This document shows, piece by piece, positions 46,413 through 63,648 of a DNA stretch of 64,000 nucleotides. Below the pieces are notes generated by a model. The model saw only the letters and a program-made list of their open reading frames with translations. It was not told where the DNA came from and did not search any database. The stretch is from an uncultured Chromatiales bacterium (lineage in GTDB: Bacteria; Pseudomonadota; Gammaproteobacteria; Poriferisulfidales; Poriferisulfidaceae). The stretch is from contig CAZGIH010000020.1 of the NCBI GenBank assembly GCA_964526195.1, positions 12,803 through 76,802 on the forward strand, given 5' to 3'. Every line of letters starts with the position of its first letter. Positions within the stretch are counted from its first letter, which is position 1. The translations under genes and the position numbers were made by a program.

Positions 46413-46964
46413 ATGATCCAGCACATTCCTAATCTGATCAGCGTCCTGCGCCTGCTTTTGGTGCCATGGTTTGCCATGCTGCTGCTGGAACAGCAGTTCG
46501 GTTTGGCACTGATCCTGTTCATCGTGATGGGCATCTCGGATGGCCTGGATGGCTTCCTGGCCCGTTATTTGAAAGCTACGAGCGCTCTGGGGGCCGGGTT
46601 GGATCCGCTTGCGGACAAGGTGATGCTGGTGGCCGCTTTCGTGGTGCTGGGGCACCTGGAATTGCTGCCAGTGTGGCTGGTAGCGTTGGTGGTGGGGCGC
46701 GATGTCATGGTCATCGGGGGAACCCTGATGAACTACCTGCTCCATCCCGGCCAAAAAACCGCAGTTCTGAAAGTCGGGAAAATTAATACTTTCGTGCAAA
46801 TCATCACGGTGTTCGCCTTCATGGGAAACCAGTTGGCCGTTCTGCCGCCGATGTTGCTTGATGTCCTGCTGTGGGCGACCGTGCTCGCAACGTTCGTCAG
46901 CGGGATCGGGTACATACTGGTCTGGGGTGGATTGCTGGCGGATCCTGGGGACGCTTCCCAATGA
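46413..46964 (+). CDS. CDP-alcohol phosphatidyltransferase-family membrane protein
   Basis: 183 aa; DG..AR...G...D...D motif (SDGLDGFLAR...GAGLDPLADK); multiple TM helices. Confidence 0.8.
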   Translation: MIQHIPNLISVLRLLLVPWFAMLLLEQQFGLALILFIVMGISDGLDGFLARYLKATSALGAGLDPLADKVMLVAAFVVLGHLELLPVWLVALVVGRDVMVIGGTLMNYLLHPGQKTAVLKVGKINTFVQIITVFAFMGNQLAVLPPMLLDVLLWATVLATFVSGIGYILVWGGLLADPGDASQ

Positions 46965-47668
46965 GCCAATTGATTCTGCCGCTCGGCTCCAATCCGCGGC
47001 ATACCTTTGCCAATTTCTGCACGGACGGCAACGAGGGAATTCTCGATGCGCTGGAATCCTTGCCGCGACAGGGCGGGTCCTTGTGGCTGCATGGCCCTCA
47101 GGACAGCGGGAAGACGCACCTGCTGCAAGCGGTCTGCCATCAGGCGAAGGCTCGGGAAGAGTCCGCGGCCTATCTGCCGCTGAAGCAAATGCGGGAACTG
47201 GGTCCGGAAACTCTGGACGGCCTGGAGCAGTGCCTGTGGATTTGCCTGGATGACGTGGATGCCGTGCTGGAACAAGGGGATTGGGAACAACGGCTGTTCG
47301 GCTTGGTCAATCAGGCGATGGATCATGGTGCCAGCCTGATGATGGCAGCGCGTCAGCCTGCGGAAAGTGTGTCGGTGGAATTGCCCGATCTGCGTTCCCG
47401 ACTCCGCGGTGCCGTGTCGTTTCCACTGCAGCCCCTAGATGACGAACGGCAATCCGAAGCATTGCGTCGCCGCGCGCGCAGCCAAGGGTACGACCTGCCG
47501 GAGGATGCGGTGCGCTACATGCAGCGCCATGTGGTCCGCGGTTTAGGACAACTCTGTCAGTTGCTGGATCAGTTGGAGCAGGCCTCGCTAAGCCAGCAGC
47601 GGCGAATTACCGTGCCGTTCGTGCGTGAGGTGTTGGCCCAGTCGCCGACTTCGGAGAGCCGGCTCTGA
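46961..47668 (+). CDS. hda: DnaA regulatory inactivator Hda
   Basis: Start at MSQLILPLG (ATGA overlap with the previous gene); AAA+ P-loop LWLHGPQDSGKTHLLQA; about 235 aa. Confidence 0.85.
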   Translation: MSQLILPLGSNPRHTFANFCTDGNEGILDALESLPRQGGSLWLHGPQDSGKTHLLQAVCHQAKAREESAAYLPLKQMRELGPETLDGLEQCLWICLDDVDAVLEQGDWEQRLFGLVNQAMDHGASLMMAARQPAESVSVELPDLRSRLRGAVSFPLQPLDDERQSEALRRRARSQGYDLPEDAVRYMQRHVVRGLGQLCQLLDQLEQASLSQQRRITVPFVREVLAQSPTSESRL

Positions 47669-48642: not shown

Positions 48643-49380
48643 TTAGGGGATAGGCAGCATGATGACGGCACCCATCGTCTTCACCGCGGCCTGGTGGGCA
48701 CGGTCCCGCCAACCGCTCGTGATGCTCGCCAGCACTCGCTGGTGCCCGACGAGTCGATCCAGGATCTGCTCGGGAGTCGGCTTAGGAAGCCCCGATTCCA
48801 GGAGCTGGTCATCGCCCTCGTGCCGTATGATCGGCTGGCCATCCGATCCAGTCCGACGTTCCAGGCTGACGCGAACGATTTCCAGGTTGTTGGCGAAGTT
48901 TTCGAGATTCTCGGAATCCAACCGGTTCAGGGCGAAAAATTCCAGCTTGTCGTTGTACGCAATCCGCATCTGGCTGACGAGGCCGACCATCAGCGCGAAG
49001 ATCCGGTCGCCGATGAAGCGGGGCTCGAATGCCAACTGCATCGCCTCGGTGCCGCGGTGGCTGTTCAGTTCTCCGAATCGCAACTCGTCGTAAGTGCGGT
49101 CCGGCAGTACCAGGGCGACCCGCTCGTCGACCGTGGCGGTCGGCATTTTCTCCAGTTCTTCGGGGTTGAGCCGGTACAACTCCCGCATCAGTTCTTCGAG
49201 CCCCTCGGTGGTCGCGTTCAGGTGTGCGTCCAAGGCGTAGTCCACGCTGGTTTTGGCGATTCCCTTGACCTCTTCGGGGATGTCCTGGGTGCTGAAGAGG
49301 TCGGTTTTGCAGCCGGTCAGCGCCAGCACCAGTGTCAGTGCCAAGCCGATGCGGATTCCATGGGGGTAAATAGTGTTCAT
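48643..49380 (-). CDS. Hypothetical lipoprotein
   Basis: 245 aa; lipobox LALTGC after the signal peptide. Confidence 0.5.
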   Translation of the reverse strand: MNTIYPHGIRIGLALTLVLALTGCKTDLFSTQDIPEEVKGIAKTSVDYALDAHLNATTEGLEELMRELYRLNPEELEKMPTATVDERVALVLPDRTYDELRFGELNSHRGTEAMQLAFEPRFIGDRIFALMVGLVSQMRIAYNDKLEFFALNRLDSENLENFANNLEIVRVSLERRTGSDGQPIIRHEGDDQLLESGLPKPTPEQILDRLVGHQRVLASITSGWRDRAHQAAVKTMGAVIMLPIP

Positions 49381-51611
49381 AGGGTGATGCGGCGGTAGAT
49401 GTCGGACACCTTGGTCGGGAGTTTCTCGATGTGGCTGACCACGGCGAAGTTAGAGGCTCCGTACATGTGCGGAAGGTACTCCATGCCCTCTTTGTCTATG
49501 GTAATGCAATACGAGTGGATTCCCAAATGTCGGGCCTCATTCAGCGCTTGGCGGGTATCCTCGATGCCGTAAGTGCCCCGGTAGCCGTCCTGGTCGTCCG
49601 GCTTGCCGTCAGACAGCGTGATCAGCAAGCGGGTGCGGGCTTCCGTGTCTTTCAGCAGTTGCGTGAGATGGCGGATCATCACGCCCATGCGGGTGTAGTT
49701 CCGGGGCGTAATGCCGCTGATGCGGCGGCGAACGTCGCTGCCGTAGGCCTCGTCCAGGTTCTTGATCGGGTACAACTCGCAATTGCGATGGGTGCGCCCG
49801 GAAAATCCATAGATCGCATAGCGATCCCCCAACGCTTCCAATGCACCGCACAGCAGCACCAGCGCCTCGCGCATCAGATCGTTGATCCAGCCGGACGTGG
49901 AGCTGCTCATGTCGATCAGGAACATCACGGCGATGTCGCGGTCTAGCTTCTTCATCCGGGTGAATAAACGTTCATCCAGTTCCGAGCCGTTGACATAGTC
50001 GCTGTAGGCGTTGATGAAACTGTCCAGGTCTACCTCGTCGCCGTGCATCTCCCGACGAACGCGCTTTTCCTCGTCGCGCAGGGCTTCGAACGTGCGCCGG
50101 AGCCCGGCGAGCAGGCGGCGGTGCCGATCCATCGTGTCCAGTGCGAACTGTTCGCTGGTGCCGGTGATCGGGCGTTCGTACAACTGGCACCAGTCGGTCC
50201 GGTACTTCTGGCGGGAATGATCCCACTCCGGGTAAACGTAGTCAGCGTCTCCGTTCGCGGGTGAAGAAGCATCCTCCAGTTCTTCCGAAGCCGGGGGATA
50301 GGCGCCGGTGCTGGCCGGCTCGAGATATTCATCGGGGATTTCCCCGAGGTCCTGAATGATGGACTCCAGCAGTTGCTGGACATCTTCGGACGGAATGACG
50401 GTTTCGTCGCCGAGTTCCAGGGAAAACGCAAACTCGTCGGCCACTTGATTTTGATCCCTGCGCACGGTGAAGCGTTCGTTTTGTTCTTTCTCGGACTGGA
50501 AAGGAGACAGTTCCTTCTTCAGGCTGAGCAGAGCATTCGCCAGTTGATGTTGCTCTTCGTCCACCCGTCTGACTAGGATTTCGGATGCAAGCTCCGGGCG
50601 CAGTACGCCTTGGTACGGAACCTCCGGAAGCGTTACTGCGGTCGGGTAGAGCCCTTCGAGCAGGCGGAGAGAGTCTTCGACCGTGGCTTTCGGATCCGAG
50701 ATTTCCGCGACGGCGGCCGTCCATGCGTCGGGCAATTCCGTCCACGCATCGGGCGGGTTATGGCGCTTGAGGATGCGGCCGATGCCGGGCATGTCGCGCC
50801 GGATCCGGGCATCCAAACGGAGCATTTCCAGTGCGTGGAAGTAGTGGCGGGCGCGGGCACGATCCGAATAGCTGGCAAAGGCGTCAGTGGGTGCCCGATA
50901 TGTCCCGCACCGGATTTGCGCCCACAGGTACGCGGCGGTAGCCTTGAGCAGGTCGAAGTTTTCTTCCCGGGTGCCGCAGGCGTCTATCAGTTCGGGCAGG
51001 TAGACGGTTTCCGTGTCGGTGTAGGGTTCTGCAGCGGTTCCCACTTTGAGCGGCCGTCCACCGAAGCCGACCAGTAGTGATTCGACCAGCCGCTCCACAT
51101 CGCTGAGACGGACGCTACGGGTGCCACCGAGGATTTTCTGCAGGTAGCCTTCGACTTCCTGCATGGCTTGTACGGCGGCGTCGACCCCGATCTGGTCGTA
51201 GCAGGCGCGCAGATGGTCGAGCCAGCCATCCCAGTGCTCCTCGTCGATCAGCCGAAGCGATGGGATGCCGAAGTGGAAGAATTGATAGGCCAGTTCGACG
51301 TCGCGATCAGCCAGGGCTTGCCCGGAATTCAGGAAGCGGCGTTGCTCGAAGTGGTTGAAGGGAGCCAGTTGCTTTGCGGGTTCGTGCACGCGGCGCCGAG
51401 TGGAAAGGATGCGCTCGATGATCTGCTCCATGCGCAGTTCCAACTCGCGTTCTCCCATCCCGCCGTATTGGGCACTGGCTTGGATGCGGGGGCCTTGTTC
51501 AATTAGTTCTTCCGGTAGCCGGGCCGAGCCTTGACGGACGTTTCGGTACAACTGGACCCACGGTGCGGCGAGCTTGCCGAGAACCAATTTCAGGAATGAC
51601 CGAGCCGGCAT
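49377..51611 (-). CDS. Large VWA-domain protein of the NorD/CbbO type (cognate MoxR-type AAA+ partner not adjacent)
   Basis: 744 aa; C-terminal VWA domain (DMSSS MIDAS motif; ...LLITLSDGKPDD...); long alpha-helical N-terminal region. Confidence 0.7.
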   Translation of the reverse strand: MPARSFLKLVLGKLAAPWVQLYRNVRQGSARLPEELIEQGPRIQASAQYGGMGERELELRMEQIIERILSTRRRVHEPAKQLAPFNHFEQRRFLNSGQALADRDVELAYQFFHFGIPSLRLIDEEHWDGWLDHLRACYDQIGVDAAVQAMQEVEGYLQKILGGTRSVRLSDVERLVESLLVGFGGRPLKVGTAAEPYTDTETVYLPELIDACGTREENFDLLKATAAYLWAQIRCGTYRAPTDAFASYSDRARARHYFHALEMLRLDARIRRDMPGIGRILKRHNPPDAWTELPDAWTAAVAEISDPKATVEDSLRLLEGLYPTAVTLPEVPYQGVLRPELASEILVRRVDEEQHQLANALLSLKKELSPFQSEKEQNERFTVRRDQNQVADEFAFSLELGDETVIPSEDVQQLLESIIQDLGEIPDEYLEPASTGAYPPASEELEDASSPANGDADYVYPEWDHSRQKYRTDWCQLYERPITGTSEQFALDTMDRHRRLLAGLRRTFEALRDEEKRVRREMHGDEVDLDSFINAYSDYVNGSELDERLFTRMKKLDRDIAVMFLIDMSSSTSGWINDLMREALVLLCGALEALGDRYAIYGFSGRTHRNCELYPIKNLDEAYGSDVRRRISGITPRNYTRMGVMIRHLTQLLKDTEARTRLLITLSDGKPDDQDGYRGTYGIEDTRQALNEARHLGIHSYCITIDKEGMEYLPHMYGASNFAVVSHIEKLPTKVSDIYRRITL

Positions 51612-51645: not shown

Positions 51646-54249
51646 TCAATCATCATCCGCGGGAGAATCCAGTTTCTGCAATTCATAAATCAGGTCCAGA
51701 GCCTCCTTCGGCGACAGCTGGTCGGGCTTCACCTGTCGGAGACGTTCCAGGGCGGCCGGGATGGATGGAGGATCGGAAGGTGGCACGAACAGGTCTTTTT
51801 GCGGATTGCTGCGCGCCCAACGCTGAGTGCTGTCATCCTCGAGTTCCAGCAGGTATGCCTGGGCCCGTTCCAGCACCGGCGCAGGAATGCCCGCGAGACG
51901 TGCGACCTGCAGGCCGTAGCTTTGGCTGGCAGGTCCTTCCTTGACGGCGTGCAGGAAGACGATTTTCTGGCCATGCATCGTGGCGTCCAGGTGAAGGTTG
52001 ACGATCCCGGGATGGATTTCGGCCAGCTGGGTCAGCTCGAAGTAGTGGGTGGAGAAAAGGGTGAATGCCCGATTTCGGGTGGCCAGGTATTCGGCGCAGC
52101 CCAGTGCCAGTGCCATCCCGTCGAAAGTGCTGGTGCCGCGACCGATCTCGTCCATCAGCACCAGACTGTATTCGGAGGCGTGGTGCAGGATGTTGGCGGC
52201 TTCCGTCATCTCGACCATGAACGTGGAACGACCCGAAGTCAGGTCGTCGGAGGCCCCGATTCGGGTGAAGATGCGGTCGATGGGGCCAATCCTGGCCTGC
52301 TTGGCCGGCACGTGGCTGCCGATGCAGGCCATCAGCACGATCAGTGCGGTCTGCCTCATATAGGTGGATTTGCCGCCCATGTTCGGACCGGTGACGAGGA
52401 GCAGGCGGCGTTGCTCGGAGAGCAGCGTGTCGTTCGGCACGAATGGTTCGTTCCAGGTCAGCTCGATTACCGGGTGGCGACCGGCTTCGATCTCGACGCC
52501 GGGTTCGTCGACCAGTTCGGGGCAGCAGTAGTGGTGTGCCTTGGCCTGCTCGGCGAAGCTGCAGAGCACGTCCAGTTCGGACAGCGCATCTGCACATCGC
52601 TTGAAGTGGTTCAGGTGTGGCGTCAGGCTTTCCAAGAGATCTTGGTAGACCTGTTTTTCCCGCTCCAGCGCCCGGCTGCGCGCGCTCAGAACGCGGTCCT
52701 CGAATTCCTTCAGCTCCGATGTCAGGTAACGCTCGTAGTTCTTGAGCGTCTGCCGCCGCCGGTAGTGATCGGGCACCCGCGCGGCTTGGCTGCGCGGGAC
52801 CTCGATGTAGTAGCCGTGAACCCGGTTGTAGGCGACTTTGAGCTGGGCGATGCCGGTACTCTCCCGTTCGGTTGCTTCCATCTCCAAAAGAAAATCGTCG
52901 GCTCCGCGCGACAGTTCGCGTAGCTCATCCAGCTCGGGATCGAATCCTGCCGCAATGGCGCCGCCCTCGCGAATGGTCGGAGGGGGATTTTCCGCGAGCG
53001 CTGAAGCCAGATGTGCAGCCAGTTCCGGGTCCGATTGCAGATGGGCACGATAGGAGTCGAATTCTGCCGCGTCGATATCCTCCAGCAGGCGGCGCAGGTC
53101 TGGCAGGCGCTGCAGGGTTTGGGCCAGGCCGCACAAGTCCCGAGGGGAAGCGGTATGCAGGGCAAGGCGGGCGATGACGCGCTCGATGTCGGAGACTTTC
53201 CTCAACTGTTCGCGAATCGGGGCGCGGTGCGTGTTGTCCAACAGGTGAGAAACGATTTGGTGGCGTGTCGCCAGTGTTTCCCGGTCGCGAAGGGGAGATT
53301 GGATCCATCGACCGAGACAACGGTGGCCCATGGCCGTGACGGTTTTGTCCAATACACCCAGCAAGCTGTGGCGGGAATCGCCGGAGATAGTCTGCTCCAG
53401 CTCGAGATTGCGTCGGCTGGTGGCATCTAGGTAGATATGAGTATCGCGCCGTTCCCTTTGCAGGCTCGTAATGTGTGGCAGGGCCGCCCGTTGTGTCTCT
53501 TGGGCGTAGTAGAGCAGGGCTCCGGCGGCTCCGGTGGCGGAGGGCGCGTCTTGGCAGTCGAAGGCAGACAGGTCATAAACCCCGAGTTGCTGGCACAAGA
53601 GCCGGGAAGCGGTTTCGGCATCAAAATGCCAGTCCGAAAGAGGCTGCCAGTGCGTGTCTTCCCAGTCCGGAGGGGTGTTCGATTCCGGGTACAGGATTTC
53701 CGCTGGACGGAGACGTTCCAGTTCCGCGTACAGGTCTTCGATGGATGGGAGATCCATCACGTTGAAGCGGCCCGAGCTCAGGTTCAGGCTGGCCAGCCCG
53801 ATCGGATCCCCCGGCCACAGTGCAAGCAGCAGGGCGTCGCGCCCGGCGTCCAGCAGTTCATCCTCGATCAGGGTTCCGGGTGTGACGATGCGCGAAATCT
53901 GGCGTTCCATCGGCCCCCGGCCGGGCGGGCTGTCACCGACCTGCTCGCAAACCACCGCGGATTCTCCGAGGTCGACGAGTTTTGCGAGATAGGAATCAAG
54001 CGAAACCACCGGGATGCCCGCCATCGGGATAGGCTGGCCCTTGGAGCGTCCGCGCTCGGTCAGTACGATATCCAGCAATTCGGAGCCGCGCTTGGCGTCC
54101 TCGAAGAACAACTCGTAGAAGTCTCCCATTCTGTAGAGCAGCAGGTGCTGGGGGTATTGCGCCTTGAACTCAAGGTACTGGCGCATGCTGGGAGTGTGCT
54201 GCTGCTGTGGCGAGGGTGACGTCAACAGTGGAGCCGGTTGCAGTGCCAT
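51646..54249 (-). CDS. mutS: DNA mismatch repair protein MutS
   Basis: 867 aa; [28 protein letters not shown]-terminus; Walker [10 protein letters not shown]. Confidence 0.97.
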
Positions 54250-54349: not shown

Positions 54350-55384
54350 TTACTCAGTTCCCGAATGCTTGGGTTTACGGGCCAAGAAGAAAAACGCCGG
54401 GGTAAAGAGACCGGATTCGCCTCCCGCGACCAGTGCGTCCGCTCCCCTGTTCAGCATTGTGCTGACCATGGTGGAGCCCTTCGGAATGATCCGCAGCGTC
54501 TCCCCGACTCTTAAGGTCAAATTGGTCAGGGCGCGCCCGATGGGCGTGCGAGGAATGCTCGCGAGACTGAGGTCGCGACCCTGCAGGGCGCGATACCAGG
54601 GCATACCCGGATCCGCTTCAGGGGCGAGGTCGCGGGCTTCCAAAAACTCGAACCCGGCCGCACTCAATGCGGGACCGATTTCAGACGTGACGGCGATATC
54701 CGGTAGCCCGTTCCCTTTCTCGATGTCTTTCTTGATCCGAAGGTGCTCGGCATTCTCCGGATCGAAGTCCTCGGTGAGACACCACTCGTAACCCGCGAAG
54801 CAGGCTCCCGGGCACAGGATGCGGAAGACCTCCCGGAACGCTGCGGTCTTGTCCGGCGCATGGGGCATGGACTCGATCGCGATGGCGGCGTCGTAGGAGT
54901 TGTCGTCCTCGGGAATCTGCATGAAGTCGCCGTGGATGAAGCGGCACAACGACTGGATGTCTTGGCTTTGTGCTTCGGCGCGCCTGATCTGGTAGGCGTT
55001 GTTGTTAAGCCCGACGAAACTGGCCCCGGAGTAACGGGCCAGCGTGCGCATTGGTCCGCCGATCCCGCAACCCAAGTCGATAACCTGCATCCCGGGTTTC
55101 AGGGACAGTTGGTCGGCTAGGAAATGCTCGTGCCTGAGCAGCGACTCCTTGAAGCTTTCGCCGCGGAGCCGGGGCGCGAAGTGAAAGGACTGGCCCCAGC
55201 CAAATTCGTAGAAATCGGTCGCTAGGTCGTAGTAGTGATTGACGAGTGTCTGATAGTCCTCTTTCCTGTTCTCCAGGTCGTCGTCGTGGAGCCCGGTGTA
55301 TTGATCGACCGCTTGGGTTACTTCATCCGGAGTGAGGTCCGAAAAAGAACGGGAACTCGATTGCTTGGTGGAAGTGCTGCTCAT
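54350..55384 (-). CDS. Sterol C-24 methyltransferase (ERG6/SMT family), SAM-dependent
   Basis: Start at the internal Met (MSSTSTK...). YYDLATDFYEFGWGQSFHF matches the SMT region-I hallmark (YEYGWG..FHF). SAM motif VIDLGCGIGGP. About 344 aa. Confidence 0.85.
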   Translation of the reverse strand: MSSTSTKQSSSRSFSDLTPDEVTQAVDQYTGLHDDDLENRKEDYQTLVNHYYDLATDFYEFGWGQSFHFAPRLRGESFKESLLRHEHFLADQLSLKPGMQVIDLGCGIGGPMRTLARYSGASFVGLNNNAYQIRRAEAQSQDIQSLCRFIHGDFMQIPEDDNSYDAAIAIESMPHAPDKTAAFREVFRILCPGACFAGYEWCLTEDFDPENAEHLRIKKDIEKGNGLPDIAVTSEIGPALSAAGFEFLEARDLAPEADPGMPWYRALQGRDLSLASIPRTPIGRALTNLTLRVGETLRIIPKGSTMVSTMLNRGADALVAGGESGLFTPAFFFLARKPKHSGTE

Positions 55385-55413
55385 TCGATTATCCTGCCAG
55401 TTCGCGTTCTTCT

Positions 55414-58400
55414 TCAAGAAGGAGCAGGCGCGTTGGGCTGCTCTTCCAAAGCCGCTGCCGCCAAAGGCACCGCGTCGCTCGCAATTGCGCCGGTGGCAAG
55501 GGAATCGGCGGTTGCCAGTTCCAGCCGGGCCCGGCGCCGCTGCTCGTAGAGGCCGAGGGCGCGCAGGGGGAAATACTGCCGATACAGGACGTAGTCCAGC
55601 AGGGCCGTACGGAAAAAGACTCCGGCCATGTCTTGCTTGGGCCATGCGCCATCCGCATCCTGGGTGTTGAGCAGGAACCGGACGCCCTGCGAGATCGCGG
55701 CCCAGTTGGGGTCCTCCGCCTCAAGGAGCGCAATCAATGCCCATGCGGTCTGGATGACCTGGCTTTCATCGTGCGCAATGTACTGGCCGGTGAAGCAACC
55801 GCTGTGGTGCTCACCCCATCCCCCGTCTCCGCGCTGACGGTCCAGCAACCACCGGCAGGCCAAGCGTAGCGCCGTATCACCCGGACGGGCTCCGGCCGCA
55901 AGCAGGCCCCTGATCCCGAAGGAAGTGCCGTAGATGAACTGAACTCCCCATACGCCGCGCCACGACCCATCGCTTGCCTGGGTTCGGCGAAGCCAGGCGC
56001 CGGCTCGCGACATGGCATCCGTCACTGCCTGGTCCGTGATGTCTGAAAAGTGCTTCTTGCAGGCGGCGAATGCCGCGAGGCAAGAAGCGGTGCACTCGAC
56101 ATAGGAATGTTCAGTCATCGACTCGCCGAACATTTCGGCTGGATTCAGCCATTCGAGCCCGATTACGGAACGCTGTGCTTCATAGCTGCCAAAGCCGCCA
56201 TCGCGGTTCTGACCTCGCAGCATGAACTGGATCGCATCCTTGAGCATGGCCGTGTTCGTCGTCCCGCGGTGGACGGCGATAATCCCGAGCACCGCTTCCG
56301 CGGTGCAGTCGGTGACTGGCCAGCCATGCCACTGTCCGGCAAAGCACCAGCCACCCTTGGGGTCGTTTCGAAAAGCCTCACGAAATCCTTCGAAACTGGT
56401 CTTGATTTGTTGCGTTTCCAGGAAATCGGCTCCACGCTGGAGGGAATTTTGAACTTCAGGGGCCAGATCGAGTCCGGACATTGTGTCCAATGCCTGCAGG
56501 GCGAAGCCGGTATCCCACGAAATGCTTCTCGCCCCGGTGACTCGTGCCCCGTATTCCTCGTCTTCCCAGATCCAGTCGTCCGACTTCGCGAGTGCCTGGC
56601 GACTGTCGGGATCGTTTGGGTCGCGCAGCCATAAGGCCAAGATGTTGAGGAGCCCGCTGACCGGGGAGATACTCGTGTGATTGGTCGTTCGAAGTTCCCA
56701 TTGGATGCGCTCGGTGATCGCGTCCATGCATCGAGCACGCAGGTATTGACTATGGAATCGTTCAAACAATTGCGAAAACCCGTACCCGATCCGGAGCCAT
56801 ACACTGGGCCGCGCATGGAGGTCGGCGCTTCGCAGGCGATTGCGGCCCGCGGAAAAGCCGACATTGGCAAAGCCCTCGGGGTACAGTTCTTCTCGCAGTG
56901 ACGCGATCAAAGGCGTGACGGGTGCCTGAAACCGATGTGAGTAGACGGCCGCCATCGCCATGTAGATGAGCCGGGTATGGCAATACCAGTTGGAAGGGTG
57001 CAGCGGAATCCAACGCGGCAGACTCCACAGTTCTGGCAGGATGGCGTTGATTCCGCGCCAGTCGTATAGATTGAGGAGCGCCAGCCAGAATTTCCCCCAG
57101 CTCGGAATGCCGAGAACTCCTTCGGTTTGCAGGAATTCCTGGGCAGGTTTAAGCAGCGGGTCATCCCGCTCGATGCCGAGCAGTCTTGCCGCGACGTAAA
57201 CCAGCGTGGTAACAAACAAGTTGGGGGGCGGGTACTCGTGCAGGCCCCATGCGCCTCCTTCTAGGCGAGTCTGTTCGAAAGACCGCAGCACGCGTCGGCG
57301 CCGATCGGGATCGAGCGACTGCCCCATGACGTAGTGCAGCAGTACGTACTGCGCGGTGAGCATGGGGCACCAGACCATCTCGCCTTCCCAGGCGCCATCC
57401 CCACCCTGGAGACTCAGCAGGCGCTCGCTCGCGCTCTTCAACGCCGGACCAGCATCAGGCGATTCGACCGTCCATGGGCGGGCAGGTTGAGAGTCGTTGG
57501 TCTTCGACGGGATGGAGACCAGGAATGTGCGGGACCAGGTGTCCCGAATTTGCTCGTCCTCTCCTTCGCCCGTGCTTCTCACCCGATGCAACATCCGGGC
57601 ACCCCGCAGCAGCCATTTGATTCGGCCCGAGAGTGAATTAAAGGTGTCTCGGGCACGTCGCCAGGCAAGTTTGTCGAGAGATCGCGGCATTTCTCCGGCA
57701 ACCGCCCGGGCCATCGTCGTAAAAAATGCAGAACTCAGGTGAATGACCGATGTGTCTTCGCAGGCGAGTAAACGCATGGTCCGGTCGCGCATCGTAGAAC
57801 TTGCCCGCCAGCCTCGGTAGGCTGCATGCCGGAGAGCCGCCACCTCGGTCCGATGATCAGCAAAGACCTCGTAGAGTCCTATGGCAAGGAATTCCGGGGC
57901 CCGGATCGCCCGGAAGCGCTTCTTGGTGAAGTCGCGAAAGTCCCCGTTTTCGGCGAGTGCAAGTGCATCACCGAAACCAAGGGTGATTCCGACCGCCGAC
58001 ATGGGGTGGTAGTGCCCGGCCGCATCGCCGATCAGTACTCGATGCGGGCTCCCGTAGCTAACGCGCGGCCTTAGTTTATTGCTGGCAGTGCGAAACTGCC
58101 CCGCCCGCAGCGCTTCAACAAATGCGGGCCTGACTGATTCCGGCAACCAACCGGTGTACGAGTCCAACAGGAACCCAATCCGATCCCGGGGTATCCAGCG
58201 ATCCGCCGGGACATCAACGACGATGCGCACGCCGCGCTCTCCGAGGCGGTACATGAGGATCGGCCCGGGTCCACCTCCCAACACGTACCCATAACCCTCC
58301 AACGGCAACGTCACGTCGTCGACCAGGACTCCCACCATCCACGAGCAAGTTTTGTGGTTCGTCGGCAAGCCCAGCGATCGACGCACGACCGAACCCCGGC

Positions 58401-58875
58401 CATCGGCGCCGACGATCCGCGTGGTCGCGACGGACTCATCGGTCCCGTTTCGAGTAAAAGTGATTCGTCCGTCTACAACCTCACGGACTTGTGCATTGAA
58501 AATGAAATCAATGCTCGATTCGTTCTCGATCGCTTCGTGCAGATGCGAGACGAGTGCCGAATGCTCACAGGCCAATCCGTGAGCACCGTCCGGATAGGGA
58601 AGTATGATCGGTTCCGAGTCGTCTTCCGGGTACACCACGAACCCATTGCCTGCACCGATGGGAGGCTGCGTGTCGATCCCGACCCCGATCTCGCGCAGGA
58701 TCTGCACGGCGGGGGGGTGCAGCCATTCTCCCGCCAGTCGCTTGGAAGCTTCGGGGCTCGCTTCGAGCAGGACAACCCGGGCACCTTTTCGCGCGTGGGC
58801 GAGCGCACACACACTGCCGACTGGTCCCCCGCCGACAATCGCGACGTCGTAATGCCGGGAGGGGGGGATGCTCAC
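55414..58875 (-). CDS. Single ORF encoding squalene monooxygenase (N-terminal) fused in frame to oxidosqualene cyclase (C-terminal)
   Basis: N-terminus: FAD Rossmann DVAIVGGGPVGS and the squalene-epoxidase motif GDAAGHYHPMSAVGITLGFGD. C-terminus: terpene-cyclase QW repeats (RDGGFGSY, GDGGWGEH) and the oxidosqualene-cyclase catalytic motif VTDCTAEA. No stop separates the two domains. Probable GTG start overlaps the CYP51 stop (GTGA). Confidence 0.85.
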   Translation of the reverse strand: MSIPPSRHYDVAIVGGGPVGSVCALAHARKGARVVLLEASPEASKRLAGEWLHPPAVQILREIGVGIDTQPPIGAGNGFVVYPEDDSEPIILPYPDGAHGLACEHSALVSHLHEAIENESSIDFIFNAQVREVVDGRITFTRNGTDESVATTRIVGADGRGSVVRRSLGLPTNHKTCSWMVGVLVDDVTLPLEGYGYVLGGGPGPILMYRLGERGVRIVVDVPADRWIPRDRIGFLLDSYTGWLPESVRPAFVEALRAGQFRTASNKLRPRVSYGSPHRVLIGDAAGHYHPMSAVGITLGFGDALALAENGDFRDFTKKRFRAIRAPEFLAIGLYEVFADHRTEVAALRHAAYRGWRASSTMRDRTMRLLACEDTSVIHLSSAFFTTMARAVAGEMPRSLDKLAWRRARDTFNSLSGRIKWLLRGARMLHRVRSTGEGEDEQIRDTWSRTFLVSIPSKTNDSQPARPWTVESPDAGPALKSASERLLSLQGGDGAWEGEMVWCPMLTAQYVLLHYVMGQSLDPDRRRRVLRSFEQTRLEGGAWGLHEYPPPNLFVTTLVYVAARLLGIERDDPLLKPAQEFLQTEGVLGIPSWGKFWLALLNLYDWRGINAILPELWSLPRWIPLHPSNWYCHTRLIYMAMAAVYSHRFQAPVTPLIASLREELYPEGFANVGFSAGRNRLRSADLHARPSVWLRIGYGFSQLFERFHSQYLRARCMDAITERIQWELRTTNHTSISPVSGLLNILALWLRDPNDPDSRQALAKSDDWIWEDEEYGARVTGARSISWDTGFALQALDTMSGLDLAPEVQNSLQRGADFLETQQIKTSFEGFREAFRNDPKGGWCFAGQWHGWPVTDCTAEAVLGIIAVHRGTTNTAMLKDAIQFMLRGQNRDGGFGSYEAQRSVIGLEWLNPAEMFGESMTEHSYVECTASCLAAFAACKKHFSDITDQAVTDAMSRAGAWLRRTQASDGSWRGVWGVQFIYGTSFGIRGLLAAGARPGDTALRLACRWLLDRQRGDGGWGEHHSGCFTGQYIAHDESQVIQTAWALIALLEAEDPNWAAISQGVRFLLNTQDADGAWPKQDMAGVFFRTALLDYVLYRQYFPLRALGLYEQRRRARLELATADSLATGAIASDAVPLAAAALEEQPNAPAPS

Positions 58876-60260
58876 TGGAAAATGCTGGCCTGTGGGCGGC
58901 GGCGGTAACGGACCCAGCAGGGTTCCCTGGGGCCTGTCACCCAACTGCCGTAATTCGGTTCGGGAAACTCGGTGATGGGCTCAAAATCGAAACAATCAAA
59001 CAGCACGGTCCAGATTGCTTTCAACTGCATGTAAGCAAAATGTTCACCGATGCATCGATGTTTGCCGCCGCCGAAACTGATCAAGGCGTAGTGGTGCTGT
59101 TTGCCCTCGGATGCAGGTGGAGCGAACCGGTCCGGATTGAAGCGGTTCGGATCGGCAAACAGGTGCGGCAACCGTTGAGAGACCGCCGGCGACACCATGG
59201 CCAGGGCGCCGGCCGGCACGACATGGTCCTTGTAGTGCAAGGGTCTGAGCACCTTGCGGATCAGCATGATCAACGGCGGGTGCATCCGCTCGCATTCACG
59301 GATGGCATGCTCCAGTATTACTTGGTGCCTGAGGTTCTCGTAGCTCACGGTTCCCGCCTCGCGGTAGGTGTCTTGCACCTCGTCTTTCACCCGCGCCAGG
59401 TATGACGGTGCCCTCATGAGTTCCAGAAGAGTCCAGGTTGCGAGCACTGCGCTGGTGTGCTGGCCCGCGAACAACACCGTCAGCAGGATTCCGGTAATCT
59501 CGTCGTCGCTCGGGGCGTGGCCATCCTTGTAGCGAGCATTCATGAGGGTCTGCATGAAATCGTCAGGCTGGGCTTCGGTCCGCCGGCGTTCCGCCATGAT
59601 CTGGCCGAAGAGTTTGGCGACTTTTCGCCGGGCCCGGTCGCGGCTCCGATGTGCCGGAATCGGGAGATAGGGAAAAAAGAACCCCAAGGTGTTGATGCCG
59701 TTTTGCAGTTCGTGGTAAGCCTCGGCGAATCCTGCGTCCAGCTGGGTCCGGACCTCTTCTCCAATGAGGCAGCGACTGGCGATTTTGACGGTGAGTTCGT
59801 TCATTGCGTGGGGCAGATCGACTTCCCCACGCTCGCCGAGGTCCTCGGCGAACTGCCAGGTTTCCTTGAACATGATGCGGGCGAACCGGCGCATCGCGGC
59901 TTCGTTGAGTGCCGGATACAAAAATCCCAATTGCTCGAGCATCAGTTCAGGCGTAGTGTCGTAAGCTACGCCGCGCCCGAAGATGGGCACCGTGAACTGG
60001 TAGACCTCTTTGGCGCTGAGTTGGTCTTCGGGTGCGTGGAAGTAGAAATCGTGAGCTTCGGGCCCGGTGAAGAGGAAGAACTCGCGCGGGCCGAGCCGGA
60101 ACCGGATGAGTTCGCCTTGCTCGCGCCAGCCGCGCTGCAGCATCGCGATCGGGTCTTTCTGGAAATCCAGCAGATGGCCGATCAGCGGCCACTTGCCCGC
60201 GATCTCGGGAATGGCCCGGGCCTCCTGCGGCGAAAGTGGGGTGGAACGTACGGTGGTCAT
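58872..60260 (-). CDS. Sterol 14-alpha demethylase (CYP51), stand-alone P450 without ferredoxin fusion
   Basis: Start at the internal Met (MTTVRST...); I-helix FAGQHTS; heme loop FGGGKHRCIGEHFA; about 463 aa. Confidence 0.88.
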   Translation of the reverse strand: MTTVRSTPLSPQEARAIPEIAGKWPLIGHLLDFQKDPIAMLQRGWREQGELIRFRLGPREFFLFTGPEAHDFYFHAPEDQLSAKEVYQFTVPIFGRGVAYDTTPELMLEQLGFLYPALNEAAMRRFARIMFKETWQFAEDLGERGEVDLPHAMNELTVKIASRCLIGEEVRTQLDAGFAEAYHELQNGINTLGFFFPYLPIPAHRSRDRARRKVAKLFGQIMAERRRTEAQPDDFMQTLMNARYKDGHAPSDDEITGILLTVLFAGQHTSAVLATWTLLELMRAPSYLARVKDEVQDTYREAGTVSYENLRHQVILEHAIRECERMHPPLIMLIRKVLRPLHYKDHVVPAGALAMVSPAVSQRLPHLFADPNRFNPDRFAPPASEGKQHHYALISFGGGKHRCIGEHFAYMQLKAIWTVLFDCFDFEPITEFPEPNYGSWVTGPREPCWVRYRRRPQASIFQ

Positions 60261-60274
60261 GTCGTCAGGTCGCC

Positions 60275-61381
60275 TCAATAGACGAACGGCAGCATCGCGA
60301 AACGCACTCGCTTCGTGTACCGCTCCCAGAGTTCGCCGTACTTGGCGCGGCAGCGGCGATCGTCGCGTCTTGAGCGATGCGACAACAGCCCCGCCAACCA
60401 CGCGGGCAACAGGTAAGGCACCCAGGATGCGAATCCGGTGGTCAGGGCGAACGAAAGGTAGATGCAGATCTCGCCGGTATAGTTGAGATGCCGCCCGATT
60501 CCCCAAAATCCGGAGACCAGCAGGTGCCCGTCCAGGGACTCGGCGGGTTTCCCCCAGATCGTGGCGTGAGAGTCACGCTTGAAACGGTGCTTCTGCCCGT
60601 TGGCGCCGCGGAAGACCCAGAAGCCGAAGACGAACAGCAGGGTGATTGCGACGGCAGCGACGGGGGGCAGGGGATCGGTTGCGTGAACCAGCCACCAGCC
60701 GGCGAGGCAATAGAAAAACGGGACCAGTACATAGTCTCCCCAAACCAGCATCCACCCGAAGCGTTCGCTGACGATGTCCCAGGTGTGGACCATTCCGTAT
60801 TCGAAGTGGAAGTAGTTGAGGACGTACAGGAAAGTGAAGGTCTGGTAAAGCATCATCGCCAAGGTCAACTCGCCGTAGGTTTCGTACTGCACGGCGGCGA
60901 ACGAGACGTTGAACAACGCGAGGCCGATGAGGGAAGGGCGGTAGCTGAAAAACTTCAAGTCCACCCCGAACCAGGTCGGATGGCCTTCCACGCCATAGAA
61001 GAAACCTTCCAATCCCTTCGGGGAATCGCCCTGGGTCCGGGTGCCTTGGTAGTACAGCAAGGCGGAAAAAGCAAACGCGAATATGTTCGCTACCACGAAC
61101 AGGGCGAGAAAGTGGGTATACAGCACCGAAAGAGAGAACCAACCGGAGACTTGGGCAAGTCCTCCCACGATCATGGTCAGCAGGAACAGGGCGAGGCCGT
61201 TGCTCCTGTAGATCCTTGATTTTCCATTGTAATCCGGTCCCGTAACCCGGCGTCCGGGCAACAGCATCGAACCCAGGAACAGGAAGCCGAAGAATGCCAG
61301 CATCATGGCTGCCGCGTCGAGCAGGGTGCTGCCGGACAGCGCAGTCAGCGAGAAGGGCAGGTCAGGCATAAGCGTTGCCAT
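60275..61381 (-). CDS. ERG4/ERG24-family sterol reductase (C-14 or C-24(28) reductase type)
   Basis: 368 aa polytopic membrane protein; family signature LLVSGFWGIGRHLNYTGE. Confidence 0.8.
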   Translation of the reverse strand: MATLMPDLPFSLTALSGSTLLDAAAMMLAFFGFLFLGSMLLPGRRVTGPDYNGKSRIYRSNGLALFLLTMIVGGLAQVSGWFSLSVLYTHFLALFVVANIFAFAFSALLYYQGTRTQGDSPKGLEGFFYGVEGHPTWFGVDLKFFSYRPSLIGLALFNVSFAAVQYETYGELTLAMMLYQTFTFLYVLNYFHFEYGMVHTWDIVSERFGWMLVWGDYVLVPFFYCLAGWWLVHATDPLPPVAAVAITLLFVFGFWVFRGANGQKHRFKRDSHATIWGKPAESLDGHLLVSGFWGIGRHLNYTGEICIYLSFALTTGFASWVPYLLPAWLAGLLSHRSRRDDRRCRAKYGELWERYTKRVRFAMLPFVY

Positions 61382-62459
61382 TCTCCGCTTTGCGTGTCAG
61401 GTATTCGCGCCACTTGCGCACGGTCACGTCCTGGAAAGCCTCCACCACGGGATTGAACTCGACGGTCGGGGCGTCCCAATGTTTCTCGTAACCCTCCTGT
61501 TCTCCTTCGAGTGCGTATTGATCCTGAGAAAGCAACGGGCCGATGAGGATGCGGTTCGAGATCTTTAGAACGAAGGTCATGGCGAAACGGGGAATGTGCA
61601 CCGGCAGCAAGGGTATCTTCAGCGACTTGAAGTAGAACAAAAAGAAGGTCCGGGTTGTCCGCTCGTCGATGGGCAGCACGAAAAGCCAGTGTTTGATCCA
61701 GTCATCGGTGTTCGACCACTGGTAAGGGTATTGGTAGCAGAGATCCATGTGATTGGTGTCGAGCCGTTTGTGGTCGACGAACAGCCCGGAGATACGCCCG
61801 CGTCCGACCTGCGTGTCGTAGGAGAGGTGCACATCATCACCGATAGTCTCGCAGCGGGTGAGGGCAGCGCCGACGAAAGGCCGGTATTGACGGTGCAGGT
61901 GGGCATGAGAGAAGTCGCTCACGTTGTCGATCACCATCGAGTGGTGGGCCAACCAGGTGAAAGTGAGCGGGACGCAGGCCCATCGGTCGGGTCCCTCGAG
62001 TTCAGGAATGTCCGGGATCTGCCGTGACTCCGCTTTCTCCGGATCCCCAGGGAACAACCAGACCAGGCCGTATCGGACCTTCACGGGATAGGATCGAATC
62101 GAGACATTCTGACAACTTTCTCCGAGGTGCTCGCGAGGCCCCCCGGCACGTTGCCCCCCTCCGTCGTATTGCCAGCCATGGTAGGCGCAGACGAGCCGGC
62201 AGCCCTCAACATGGCCGAGAGAAAGCTTGAGTTGGCGATGGGCGCAGCGATCCTCGACCGCATGGAACGAACCATCCTTTGCTCGGAACAATGCGATGGC
62301 GTGTTTCCAGAAAACAACCTCGGTCACGGTTCCCGGCTTGACGCGGCGTACTTCTTCGACCGCGTACCAATAATCCGGGTCCATGCCCGCGGCGCGCGCT
62401 TTCTGTCGCAAATTGCTGGCTTCATCGAAGCCAGGAGGCGGGCTTGTCATTGAGTCCAT
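61362..62459 (-). CDS. Rieske [2Fe-2S] non-heme iron oxygenase, SdmA-like (sterol C-4 demethylation type)
   Basis: 365 aa; Rieske box CAHRQLKLS...CAYHGW; C-terminal catalytic domain; paired with a 3beta-HSD-like gene. Confidence 0.7.
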   Translation of the reverse strand: MDSMTSPPPGFDEASNLRQKARAAGMDPDYWYAVEEVRRVKPGTVTEVVFWKHAIALFRAKDGSFHAVEDRCAHRQLKLSLGHVEGCRLVCAYHGWQYDGGGQRAGGPREHLGESCQNVSIRSYPVKVRYGLVWLFPGDPEKAESRQIPDIPELEGPDRWACVPLTFTWLAHHSMVIDNVSDFSHAHLHRQYRPFVGAALTRCETIGDDVHLSYDTQVGRGRISGLFVDHKRLDTNHMDLCYQYPYQWSNTDDWIKHWLFVLPIDERTTRTFFLFYFKSLKIPLLPVHIPRFAMTFVLKISNRILIGPLLSQDQYALEGEQEGYEKHWDAPTVEFNPVVEAFQDVTVRKWREYLTRKAENGNAYA

Positions 62460-62460
62460 T

Positions 62461-63648
62461 TCAGCCTCCGTCTGAAGTGATGGGTGTGCCTTGATCCGGC
62501 ATGAGTTCTTCTACTTGTCCTGTGCCGTCCATGCACGGGGGTTTCGCGTCCGGGTTCGTGATCGCCTTGCGCTGGTGGTAGTGAAAGGCGTAGGCTTCGT
62601 GAACCGCGGCGCGGATGCTGGTCGGACGATAACCGAGATCTTCTTTCGCCTTGCTGTTGTTGGCGTGGCGGCACTTTTGCAGCAGGCGAATGGCGCCGGG
62701 AGTGAAACGCTGAGGGAAACTTGGATGAAACCGGCTCAGGTAAAAACTGGCCACTTCTGAGAAAGCAAGCATTGCACGGACCGGAATCCGTCGGTTGGGT
62801 CGCGGGATGCCGGAGACTTCCTCGTACAGGTCGATGATGTCGGAGATGGTTTTGTATTCGGAACTGAAGATGTATTTCTCGCCTGTGCGCCCGCGGCCCA
62901 TGCACAACCGGTGTCCTTCAACAATGTCCCGTGCCGCGACGAACTCGAAGCCGCCATCGACGTAGGCATGGAGCTTGCCGTTTGTGTAATCGCACAAGGT
63001 TCTACCCAATCGTGAAGGGAAGAAATCGCTGCCCCCCACAACCGCGCAACACGTTGCGACGATGACATCCTGTCCGGCCGCCGCGGCGCGCCAGCACACC
63101 TGTTCGACGAGCGTCTTGCTGCGCTCGTAGGGCATCGTGCGTTCCATGGGATAGAACAGCATCGTCTCGTCGCTGGGGGCGGAGGGGTCATCCAGGTTGT
63201 ACCCGACCGCGCTGAAAGAGCCCGTCACGACCACCCGGCCGGCTTCCGTCTCCCGTGCCGCCTGCAGCATGTTGCGGGTGCCGAGAACGTTGCACTCGTA
63301 TATTTCCCGACGATGGGCGTGGTTTCCTTCGATGGTTGAAACCTTGGCCGCGCAGTGATAGACGCCTTGGCAGCCCTCGACCGCACGCCTGACGGAATTC
63401 AAGTCCCGCAGGTCGCCGAACACGCGTTCGACCTCAAGGCCTTCCAGCGCCTCGTTGTTCTCTTCGTGTCTTAGCAGCACCCGGACCCGGGTGCCTTCGT
63501 TGAGTAGCCGACGCACGAGATTGGCACCCACGTGCCCGGCCGCGCCGGTGACGAAAACGGGTGCAGCCGATGAATTGTCGGGTGTGCTCGATCCTGAAGT
63601 CATCTTGTGCCCTGATTCCGAAACTTTTTCATCCATGTTTGACGGCAT
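62461..63648 (-). CDS. NAD(P)-dependent 3beta-hydroxysteroid dehydrogenase/decarboxylase-family enzyme, SdmB/ERG26-like
   Basis: Extended-SDR motifs VFVTGAAGHVGANL and Y-E-R-S-K; an alternative start at Met16 lies at 63603. Confidence 0.72.
   Translation of the reverse strand: MPSNMDEKVSESGHKMTSGSSTPDNSSAAPVFVTGAAGHVGANLVRRLLNEGTRVRVLLRHEENNEALEGLEVERVFGDLRDLNSVRRAVEGCQGVYHCAAKVSTIEGNHAHRREIYECNVLGTRNMLQAARETEAGRVVVTGSFSAVGYNLDDPSAPSDETMLFYPMERTMPYERSKTLVEQVCWRAAAAGQDVIVATCCAVVGGSDFFPSRLGRTLCDYTNGKLHAYVDGGFEFVAARDIVEGHRLCMGRGRTGEKYIFSSEYKTISDIIDLYEEVSGIPRPNRRIPVRAMLAFSEVASFYLSRFHPSFPQRFTPGAIRLLQKCRHANNSKAKEDLGYRPTSIRAAVHEAYAFHYHQRKAITNPDAKPPCMDGTGQVEELMPDQGTPITSDGG

Follow-up and report, generated by a model that had tools for sequence, protein, structure and literature searches.

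A probable bifunctional squalene epoxidase–oxidosqualene cyclase fusion conserved within a sterol operon of sponge-associated bacteria

Can squalene epoxidase and oxidosqualene cyclase, two consecutive enzymes of the sterol pathway, be carried by a single bacterial gene, or does such a gene reflect an error in the sequence? The question is raised by a contig of an uncultured Chromatiales bacterium (GenBank assembly GCA_964526195.1, contig CAZGIH010000020.1), of which we analysed a stretch of 64,000 nucleotides (forward-strand positions 12,803 to 76,802; hereafter ‘the window’, to which all coordinates refer). On the minus strand of the window, at 55414..58875, both enzymes are read from one uninterrupted frame, referred to here as SE::OSC. 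The original prediction regarded this gene either as a natural fusion or as two genes whose separating stop codon had been lost or mis-sequenced. We find that SE::OSC is very probably a genuine and evolutionarily maintained bifunctional gene, with both activities, and expression as a single polypeptide, predicted from its sequence.

The list of open reading frames (ORFs) confirmed the single 1154-codon frame from GTG 58875 (1153 residues plus the stop) that had been proposed. The stop-free frame on the minus strand extends over 55414..58944 and gives 1176 residues when counted from its first TTG. GTG 58875 is the better-supported start because it overlaps the stop codon of the upstream CYP51 gene and because the closest homologues are exactly 1153 residues long, with 100% coverage; the CYP51 stop TGA begins one base inside the fusion GTG, forming a GTGA overlap at 58872..58875 (CAGTGAGC). 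Homologues of 1120–1180 residues cover 96–100% of the protein. Pfam places all of the expected domains in this one frame, with FAD_binding_3 and SE at residues 32–415, SQHop_cyclase_N at 503–796 and SQHop_cyclase_C at 809–1134 (these positions are counted from the first TTG and equal the GTG numbering used elsewhere plus 23). The protein can thus be divided into an epoxidase half (residues 1–450, 57526..58875), a junction or connector that is coil in the predicted structure (residues 451–475, FLVSIPSKTNDSQPARPWTVESPDA, 57451..57525), a cyclase half (residues 476–1115, 55531..57450) and a variable C-terminal tail of low conservation (residues 1116–1153 plus the stop, 55414..55530), for which the predicted local distance difference test score (pLDDT) is about 25–40.

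The epoxidase half matched the SE and FAD_binding_3 families with 79.0 and 77.2 bits, above the curated cutoffs of 20.1 and 22 bits. By sequence, residues 10–304 matched human squalene epoxidase SQLE (6C6N) with E = 2e-22, and by fold the AlphaFold2 model of the fusion matched 6C6N with a template modelling score (TM, normalised to the target) of 0.81 over 439 columns, with a root-mean-square deviation of 3.2 (Foldseek). These 439 columns correspond to the entire 6C6N catalytic construct, including its C-terminal helical membrane-associated domain, while the N-terminal membrane anchor of eukaryotic SQLE is absent from the fusion. The Rossmann motif for binding flavin adenine dinucleotide (FAD), GGGPVG, lies at residues 15–20 (58816..58833), and 97 of 97 fused proteins share its residues G15, G17, P18 and G20; the alignment of these 97 was also used for motif invariance in general and as input to AlphaFold2. 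Likewise invariant in the 97 proteins is the FAD/substrate motif GDAAGHYHP at 283–291, within GDAAGHYHPMSAVG (283–296). From these features we take the N-terminal half to be a squalene monooxygenase dependent on FAD, predicted to convert squalene to 2,3-oxidosqualene.

The cyclase half scored 172 bits with SQHop_cyclase_N and 177 bits with SQHop_cyclase_C (cutoffs of about 26 bits). Residues 486–1113 aligned with residues 84–722 of human lanosterol synthase (1W6K) at E = 2e-132, compared with E = 2e-50 for the Alicyclobacillus squalene-hopene cyclase, and the model of this half matched the 1W6K fold with a TM of 0.77 (Foldseek). Judged by these sequence matches, the cyclase half resembles the cyclases that form sterols more than those that form hopenes. 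The catalytic motif is also of the oxidosqualene-cyclase type and not the DxDD(TA) of squalene-hopene cyclases: VTDCTAE at 854–860 aligns to human VSDCTAEA, so that D856 and C857 correspond to human Asp455 and C456. Within it, DCTAE lies at 56296..56310, with D856 as the predicted general acid, and D856, C857, E860 and A861 are invariant in all 97 fused proteins.

The same arrangement recurs among a large number of relatives. A homologue search over 5.8 billion proteins gave more than 120 protein clusters of 1107–1181 residues, 68–94% identical to the window protein and all with both domain sets; clustering at 50% identity merged the whole fused set into one cluster. Loci were counted in a genome scan with one genome per species, from which we took the best 80 of 529 relatives. 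These 80 species-level loci encode proteins 65–93% identical to the window protein, come from at least 12 phyla and are mainly sponge-derived metagenome-assembled genomes (MAGs), several of them chromosome-level. Alignments to them span residues 1 to about 1120, and epoxidase and cyclase were in the same frame in 80 of 80, a recurrence far beyond chance. The spacing from the GEWLHPP motif to DCTAE is constant across the 80 loci, at 800–809 residues. Those closest to the window (93%) belong to Candidatus Porisulfidus sp. TsSOB and other gammaproteobacterial MAGs of presumed sponge origin, and the family extends, at 65–76% identity, to Binatia, Thermodesulfobacteriota, Nitrospirales, Nitrospinaceae, Acidimicrobiia, Bryobacterales, Vicinamibacterales, Alphaproteobacteria, Opitutales, Rhodothermales, Longimicrobiales and others.

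Residues 432–471 (57463..57582) read VRSTGEGEDEQIRDTWSRTFLVSIPSKTNDSQPARPWTVE, in agreement with the linker that had been quoted for 57430–57580. Stand-alone bacterial epoxidases of 440–450 residues (P0178, P0200 and P0206) have their counterpart in residues 4 to about 430 of the fusion, and stand-alone cyclases (P0131, P0134, P0141 and P0148) align from residues 464–479 onward; the suggested comparison with free-standing enzymes thus places the end of epoxidase homology at about 430 and the beginning of cyclase homology at about 465–479. Together with the model, these alignments identify residues ~432–471 as the part without a counterpart in free-standing enzymes, and ~451–475 as an unstructured junction within and beyond it. 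AlphaFold2 modelled the whole chain with a pLDDT of 78.4 and a predicted template modelling score (pTM) of 0.79, placing helices at 402–435 and 440–450 (the C-terminal helices of the epoxidase half), coil at 451–475 and the first cyclase helix at 476–488. For a chain of two domains, this pTM suggests that the halves may have a defined mutual orientation. No solved chain spanning both halves was present among the Foldseek matches.

The junction is also conserved in length and sequence. In an alignment of 81 sequences, linker indels occurred in at most 4, and the fraction of sequences carrying the majority residue was 0.60–0.65 in the linker, 0.8–0.95 in the enzyme cores and 0.09–0.27 in the C-terminal tail, which is mostly gapped. 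Ratios of nonsynonymous to synonymous substitution (dN/dS, Nei–Gojobori estimates, as for synonymous divergence below) were 0.05–0.5 for the junction and linker (0.05–0.4 for residues 451–475), 0.1–0.25 for the enzyme cores and 0.3–1.4 for the tail. Because the linker compares in this way with the cores and the tail, the junction appears to be translated and under constraint. Examples of tryptic peptides that would span the junction are TFLVSIPSK and TNDSQPARPWTVESPDAGPALK. A transmembrane helix was not found in either half: the highest 19-residue Kyte–Doolittle mean was 1.41, in the disordered tail. The two parent enzymes sit in the membrane as monotopic proteins and draw their lipid substrate out of the bilayer, and a protein without any hydrophobic window of transmembrane strength fits two such membrane-surface enzymes.

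Comparison with orthologous loci, which had been proposed as a check, returned the fused form in 80 of 80 cases; it also returned one lineage with two genes, broken near residue 465. This lineage (L081, 6001–9440 of ENA ERZ24894576 ctg49556l) encodes a separate epoxidase of 477 residues, corresponding to residues 1–465 of the fusion (58% identity), and a separate cyclase of 666 residues, corresponding to residues 465–1114 (74%). At the junction, the epoxidase gene ends in a stop codon and, after a gap of 5 nt, the cyclase gene starts at a GTG in a different frame; the epoxidase retains the connector sequence up to residue ~465 (57481–57483 in the window). Compared with the fused junction, the split junction differs by about 53 nt, which are extra in L081. 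The protein cluster of the split epoxidase (P0137) has 13 members from many contigs, of which 12 are 477 residues long and one is a 76-residue fragment; the LXNJ01 prefix of one member points to the Petrosia ficiformis metagenome record on which Brown et al. (PMC10070321) drew. The split point coincides with the only low-confidence stretch of the model there (459–469). Orthologues with two separate genes had been named in the original prediction as evidence against a fusion; they occur here in a single lineage, and their break marks a genuine boundary between domains, not a fault in the window sequence. Neighbour-joining trees nested the split lineage within the fused clade with a replicate support of only 67 of 100 (cyclase) and 72 of 100 (epoxidase), and the split may be either ancestral or a secondary fission. 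A tandem duplication in the linker was considered as the origin of the split form and rejected, because the L081 junction, aligned locally with itself, scored 17 and shuffled sequences had a mean of 17.7.

Several observations weigh against a maintained bifunctional fusion. The lineage with separate genes means that fusion is not required for function. In the epoxidase half, Phe79 (NGF79, 58639–58641) takes the place of human SQLE Tyr195 (NGY195), a residue next to the flavin that is said, in work by Padyana and colleagues from 2019, to be important. Phe79 is invariant in the fused family, and stand-alone bacterial epoxidases (P0178 and P0200) have Phe as well, so it is a trait of the bacterial clade and not a sign of decay. 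At the junction, pLDDT falls below 50 at 459–469, and the segment may act as a tether that is flexible or open to cleavage instead of a fixed conduit. In the cyclase half, the positions commonly used to predict the product (human 381/449/453) are A782/H850/V854. The reference triads are T/C/V for lanosterol and Y/H/I for cycloartenol; the Val is thus lanosterol-type, the His cycloartenol-type and the Ala neither, and with such a mixture the cyclase product cannot be called from these positions. Lanosterol or parkeol would be most likely, and cycloartenol is also possible. Finally, the literature searched contained no evidence at the protein or enzyme level for this gene or for its fused relatives.

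How far do these observations favour other explanations? That two adjacent genes were joined by a lost stop codon or a 1-nt indel through sequencing or assembly error is extremely improbable. Such an explanation could draw on L081, which has its stop codon, gap and change of frame at the equivalent position, but the two forms differ by ~53 nt and not by a single base. It would also have to account for 80 independent loci, chromosome-level MAG assemblies included, that all share one frame, for closest proteins that are collinear over 1153 residues, and for a linker under purifying selection (dN/dS ~0.1–0.5) with a near-constant length and without frame-breaking indels. On this same evidence, and with the motifs of both halves kept, the lost or mis-sequenced stop that the original prediction entertained was not borne out, and its alternative, a natural fusion, is supported. 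More weight, although it is still unlikely, can be given to the proposal that one gene yields two proteins through an internal start or cleavage in the junction, with fusion ensuring only co-expression and co-transfer. The low pLDDT at the L081 break point would suit a cleavage site, and 64 of 80 relatives have a Met codon at position 455. The window, however, has Ile (ATC) at this only frequent Met position, and within residues 451–478 the family shares no conserved codon capable of starting translation; a site for internal initiation or ribosome re-initiation in the junction was therefore rejected. For a cleavage spacer, moreover, one would not expect a connector that is more conserved and far more constant in length than the dispensable tail, and the pTM suggests a defined arrangement of the two domains.

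It is very unlikely that one half has changed or lost its function, for example a cyclase that now makes an arborane-type triterpenol or an epoxidase that serves merely a structural or membrane-anchoring role. The A782/H850/V854 triad, matching neither reference, leaves some room for this, as does a distant fusion (P0133, described below) whose cyclase has lost the catalytic Asp, since it demonstrates that domain decay occurs in this architecture. In the family studied here, both halves have dN/dS values of ~0.1–0.2 and the cofactor and catalytic motifs are all invariant. The other enzymes of the operon (CYP51, C-14 reductase, and those of C-4 demethylation and C-24 methylation) have a lanosterol-type product as their substrate.

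If SE::OSC is a bifunctional enzyme, its epoxidase half would consume O2 and reducing equivalents in turning squalene into (3S)-2,3-oxidosqualene, and its cyclase half, which belongs to the class II triterpene cyclases, would form a protosterol from the epoxide after protonating it with Asp856. Tethering could bring several benefits: a fixed 1:1 stoichiometry of epoxidase to cyclase, obligatory co-localisation on the same membrane face, and a short distance for oxidosqualene to travel, so that less of it is lost or oxidised further to dioxidosqualene. We infer that 2,3-oxidosqualene may be channelled between the halves, as the original prediction supposed. The operon appears to have been passed horizontally between sponge symbionts from many bacterial phyla, and two steps in one gene would make it a more compact mobile module. 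A stronger version of this scheme, which is doubtful, is that the connector locks both enzymes in a fixed membrane-facing assembly, that 2,3-oxidosqualene is passed on directly without equilibrating with the bilayer, and that this module enabled a recent spread of the operon across at least a dozen phyla. If direct hand-over does occur, the fusion would be a natural sterol ‘metabolon’ in one polypeptide.

SE::OSC is the fifth cistron of a tight six-gene operon on the minus strand, in the order sdmB, sdmA, ERG24, CYP51, fusion and sterol C-24 methyltransferase (SMT). The first gene (62461..63648) encodes an sdmB-like NAD-dependent epimerase/3-beta-hydroxysteroid dehydrogenase (Pfam Epimerase and 3Beta_HSD, and synteny), and the second (61362..62459) an sdmA-like Rieske oxygenase of bacterial sterol C-4 demethylation (Pfam Rieske and VanA_C, and synteny). 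They are followed by an ERG4/ERG24-family sterol C-14 reductase (60275..61381; PF01222, 239 bits, and synteny) and by the sterol 14-alpha-demethylase CYP51 (58872..60260, 462 residues from ATG 60260; Pfam p450, 196 bits). The SMT (54350..55384, 344 residues from ATG 55384; Pfam Sterol_MT_C and Methyltransf_11) lies downstream of the fusion, and all of these genes are on the minus strand. The sdmA-like and ERG24 ORFs as called overlap by 20 nt (61362–61381) and CYP51 and the fusion by 4 nt, and a 1-nt gap separates the sdmB-like and sdmA-like genes. Such overlapping or abutting cistrons are consistent with translational coupling along the operon. Candidate internal promoters and terminators were rejected because their signal counts were at or under the shuffled expectation.

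The order sdmB-sdmA-ERG24-CYP51-fusion is kept in about 68 of the 80 related loci, and in 9 the fusion is found without these neighbours. By tblastn, CYP51 ends where the epoxidase starts in related loci, always in a different frame. Stop-free frames of 1400–1670 codons extending upstream in several loci were considered as a possible triple fusion with CYP51 and rejected, since CYP51 was off-frame throughout (tblastn); these long frames result from high G+C content. In the split-gene locus the operon comprises sdmB, an 82-residue ORF, sdmA, CYP51, the epoxidase and the cyclase, without ERG24. Most related loci have an SMT beside the fusion, on a strand that varies: the window and its close relatives have a single SMT that follows the fusion on the same strand, and most other lineages have it on the opposite strand; two or three SMT paralogues stand beside the operon in L008 (12806–16233), L009 (12268–14375), L016 and L075, which belong to Binatia, Nitrospirales and Alphaproteobacteria.

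Across at least 12 phyla the proteins of the entire operon are 65–83% identical (window 54350–63648 compared with L008–L080), and synonymous divergence of the window fusion from the Binatia, Nitrospira and Alphaproteobacteria copies reaches only ~0.8–0.9. This low divergence across phyla fits a horizontal spread of the operon, as Kelly et al. 2022 (PMC9531527) concluded, and the sequence comparisons indicate apparent transfer of the sterol operon between phyla. Elsewhere in the window, tblastn found no squalene synthase, second epoxidase or second cyclase. The genes directly downstream of the operon are housekeeping genes: a MutS-like ORF of 867 residues, so named from its translation only (51646–54249, minus strand), and genes for a VWA-domain protein (49377–51611, minus strand) and an Hda-like protein (46871–47668, plus strand). 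Within the examined part of the window, no integrase or other mobility gene was noticed adjoining the operon.

How does SE::OSC relate to systems that are already known? Squalene monooxygenase and oxidosqualene cyclase genes are usually adjacent in bacteria. The stand-alone enzymes of Methylococcus capsulatus (MCA2872/MCA2873), Gemmata and myxobacteria, like the eukaryotic ERG1/ERG7 and SQLE/LSS, share the families, motifs and folds of the fusion but are separate polypeptides, and the nearest stand-alone cyclases and epoxidases are only ~49% and 44–47% identical to it, respectively. The fusion itself is not new: it is widespread in sponge-associated bacteria and already mentioned in the literature, as a kind of protein that is biochemically uncharacterised. 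Brown, Olagunju, Giner and Welander (2023, Nat Commun 14:1859, PMC10070321), in a paper on methyltransferases, trimmed ‘fused SMO/OSC homologs’ (SMO, squalene monooxygenase), and in their Supplementary Data 1 one gene ID in the Aplysina aerophoba cluster matches both yeast ERG1 and ERG7 and adjoins ERG11, ERG24, SMTs and sdmA/B homologues. The architecture and the operon are the same as in the window, and the window protein is 68–94% identical to such proteins, but the fusion was not analysed, expressed or discussed there. Full-text literature searches found no functional, biochemical or structural study of the fusion. The window copy is a distinct species-level variant within a Candidatus Porisulfidus-like gammaproteobacterial group, 93–94% identical to the closest deposited proteins.

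A second description comes from Ircinia symbionts, in which Kelly et al. (2022, Microbiome 10:164, PMC9531527) reported ‘clusters of steroid genes’ of ~5.9 kb with the order ERG24-CYP51-LSS, present in 10 phyla, under purifying selection and horizontally transferred, with dihydroflavonol-reductase-like and ‘hypothetical’ genes upstream and SMT or FDFT1 downstream. The three-gene core is the same as in the window, and the upstream pair can be recognised as sdmB-like and sdmA-like; the third gene, however, was annotated as lanosterol synthase only, and squalene epoxidase or monooxygenase was never mentioned. A natural fusion of functionally coupled partners in bacterial sterol synthesis has a parallel in the CYP51-ferredoxin of M. 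capsulatus (Lamb et al. 2021, PMC7947880). That protein joins an enzyme to a redox partner, whereas SE::OSC joins two consecutive pathway enzymes, and by Pfam the window CYP51 matches the p450 family only and has no ferredoxin domain.

In these symbionts, the pathway begins with the fused gene. Database names for six members of the fused family (P0002, P0028, P0101, P0112, P0115 and P0135) are ‘squalene--hopene cyclase’, ‘FAD-dependent monooxygenase’, ‘hypothetical protein’ and ‘lanosterol synthase’, and no annotation of the six reflects both functions. With the fusion annotated as one function, pathway surveys can wrongly report the epoxidase step as missing. Bacterial sterol synthesis also bears on the use of sterane fossils as biomarkers of eukaryotes and sponges, and an operon that carries SMT complicates such readings. 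The natural fused and split forms, with their break at the same residue, offer a system for asking whether covalent coupling improves flux or limits side products, and the fused gene is a convenient single-gene part for engineering triterpenoid synthesis in bacteria.

More distant proteins also combine these enzymes. Fusions P0121–P0126 are 44–49% identical to the window protein, have unrelated linkers and are placed among stand-alone cyclases in the neighbour-joining tree. One of them, P0122 (48% identity), is encoded at L082 (3653–11884, Logan SRR14366766) in an operon with the order sdmB, CYP51, sdmA, fusion, EBP (sterol 8,7-isomerase family) and ERG24. On account of the unrelated linkers, the tree position and the reordered operon, the SE::OSC architecture appears to have arisen or broken more than once. 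In P0133, a distant fusion of 1073 residues with 39% identity, PCAKTTAE replaces VTDCTAE, so that the cyclase Asp is lost, and the cyclase profiles match only in part; its cyclase half may be a decayed or repurposed domain. In uncultured bacteria we also noted fusions of squalene epoxidase with squalene/phytoene synthase, some with cyclase-like repeats between them (candidates P0198, P0211, P0219, P0223, P0226, P0229, P0232, P0241, P0255, P0258, P0260 and P0265), and one protein, P0197, in which a squalene-synthase domain is joined to a cyclase. For four of these proteins, the domain combination was confirmed by Pfam.

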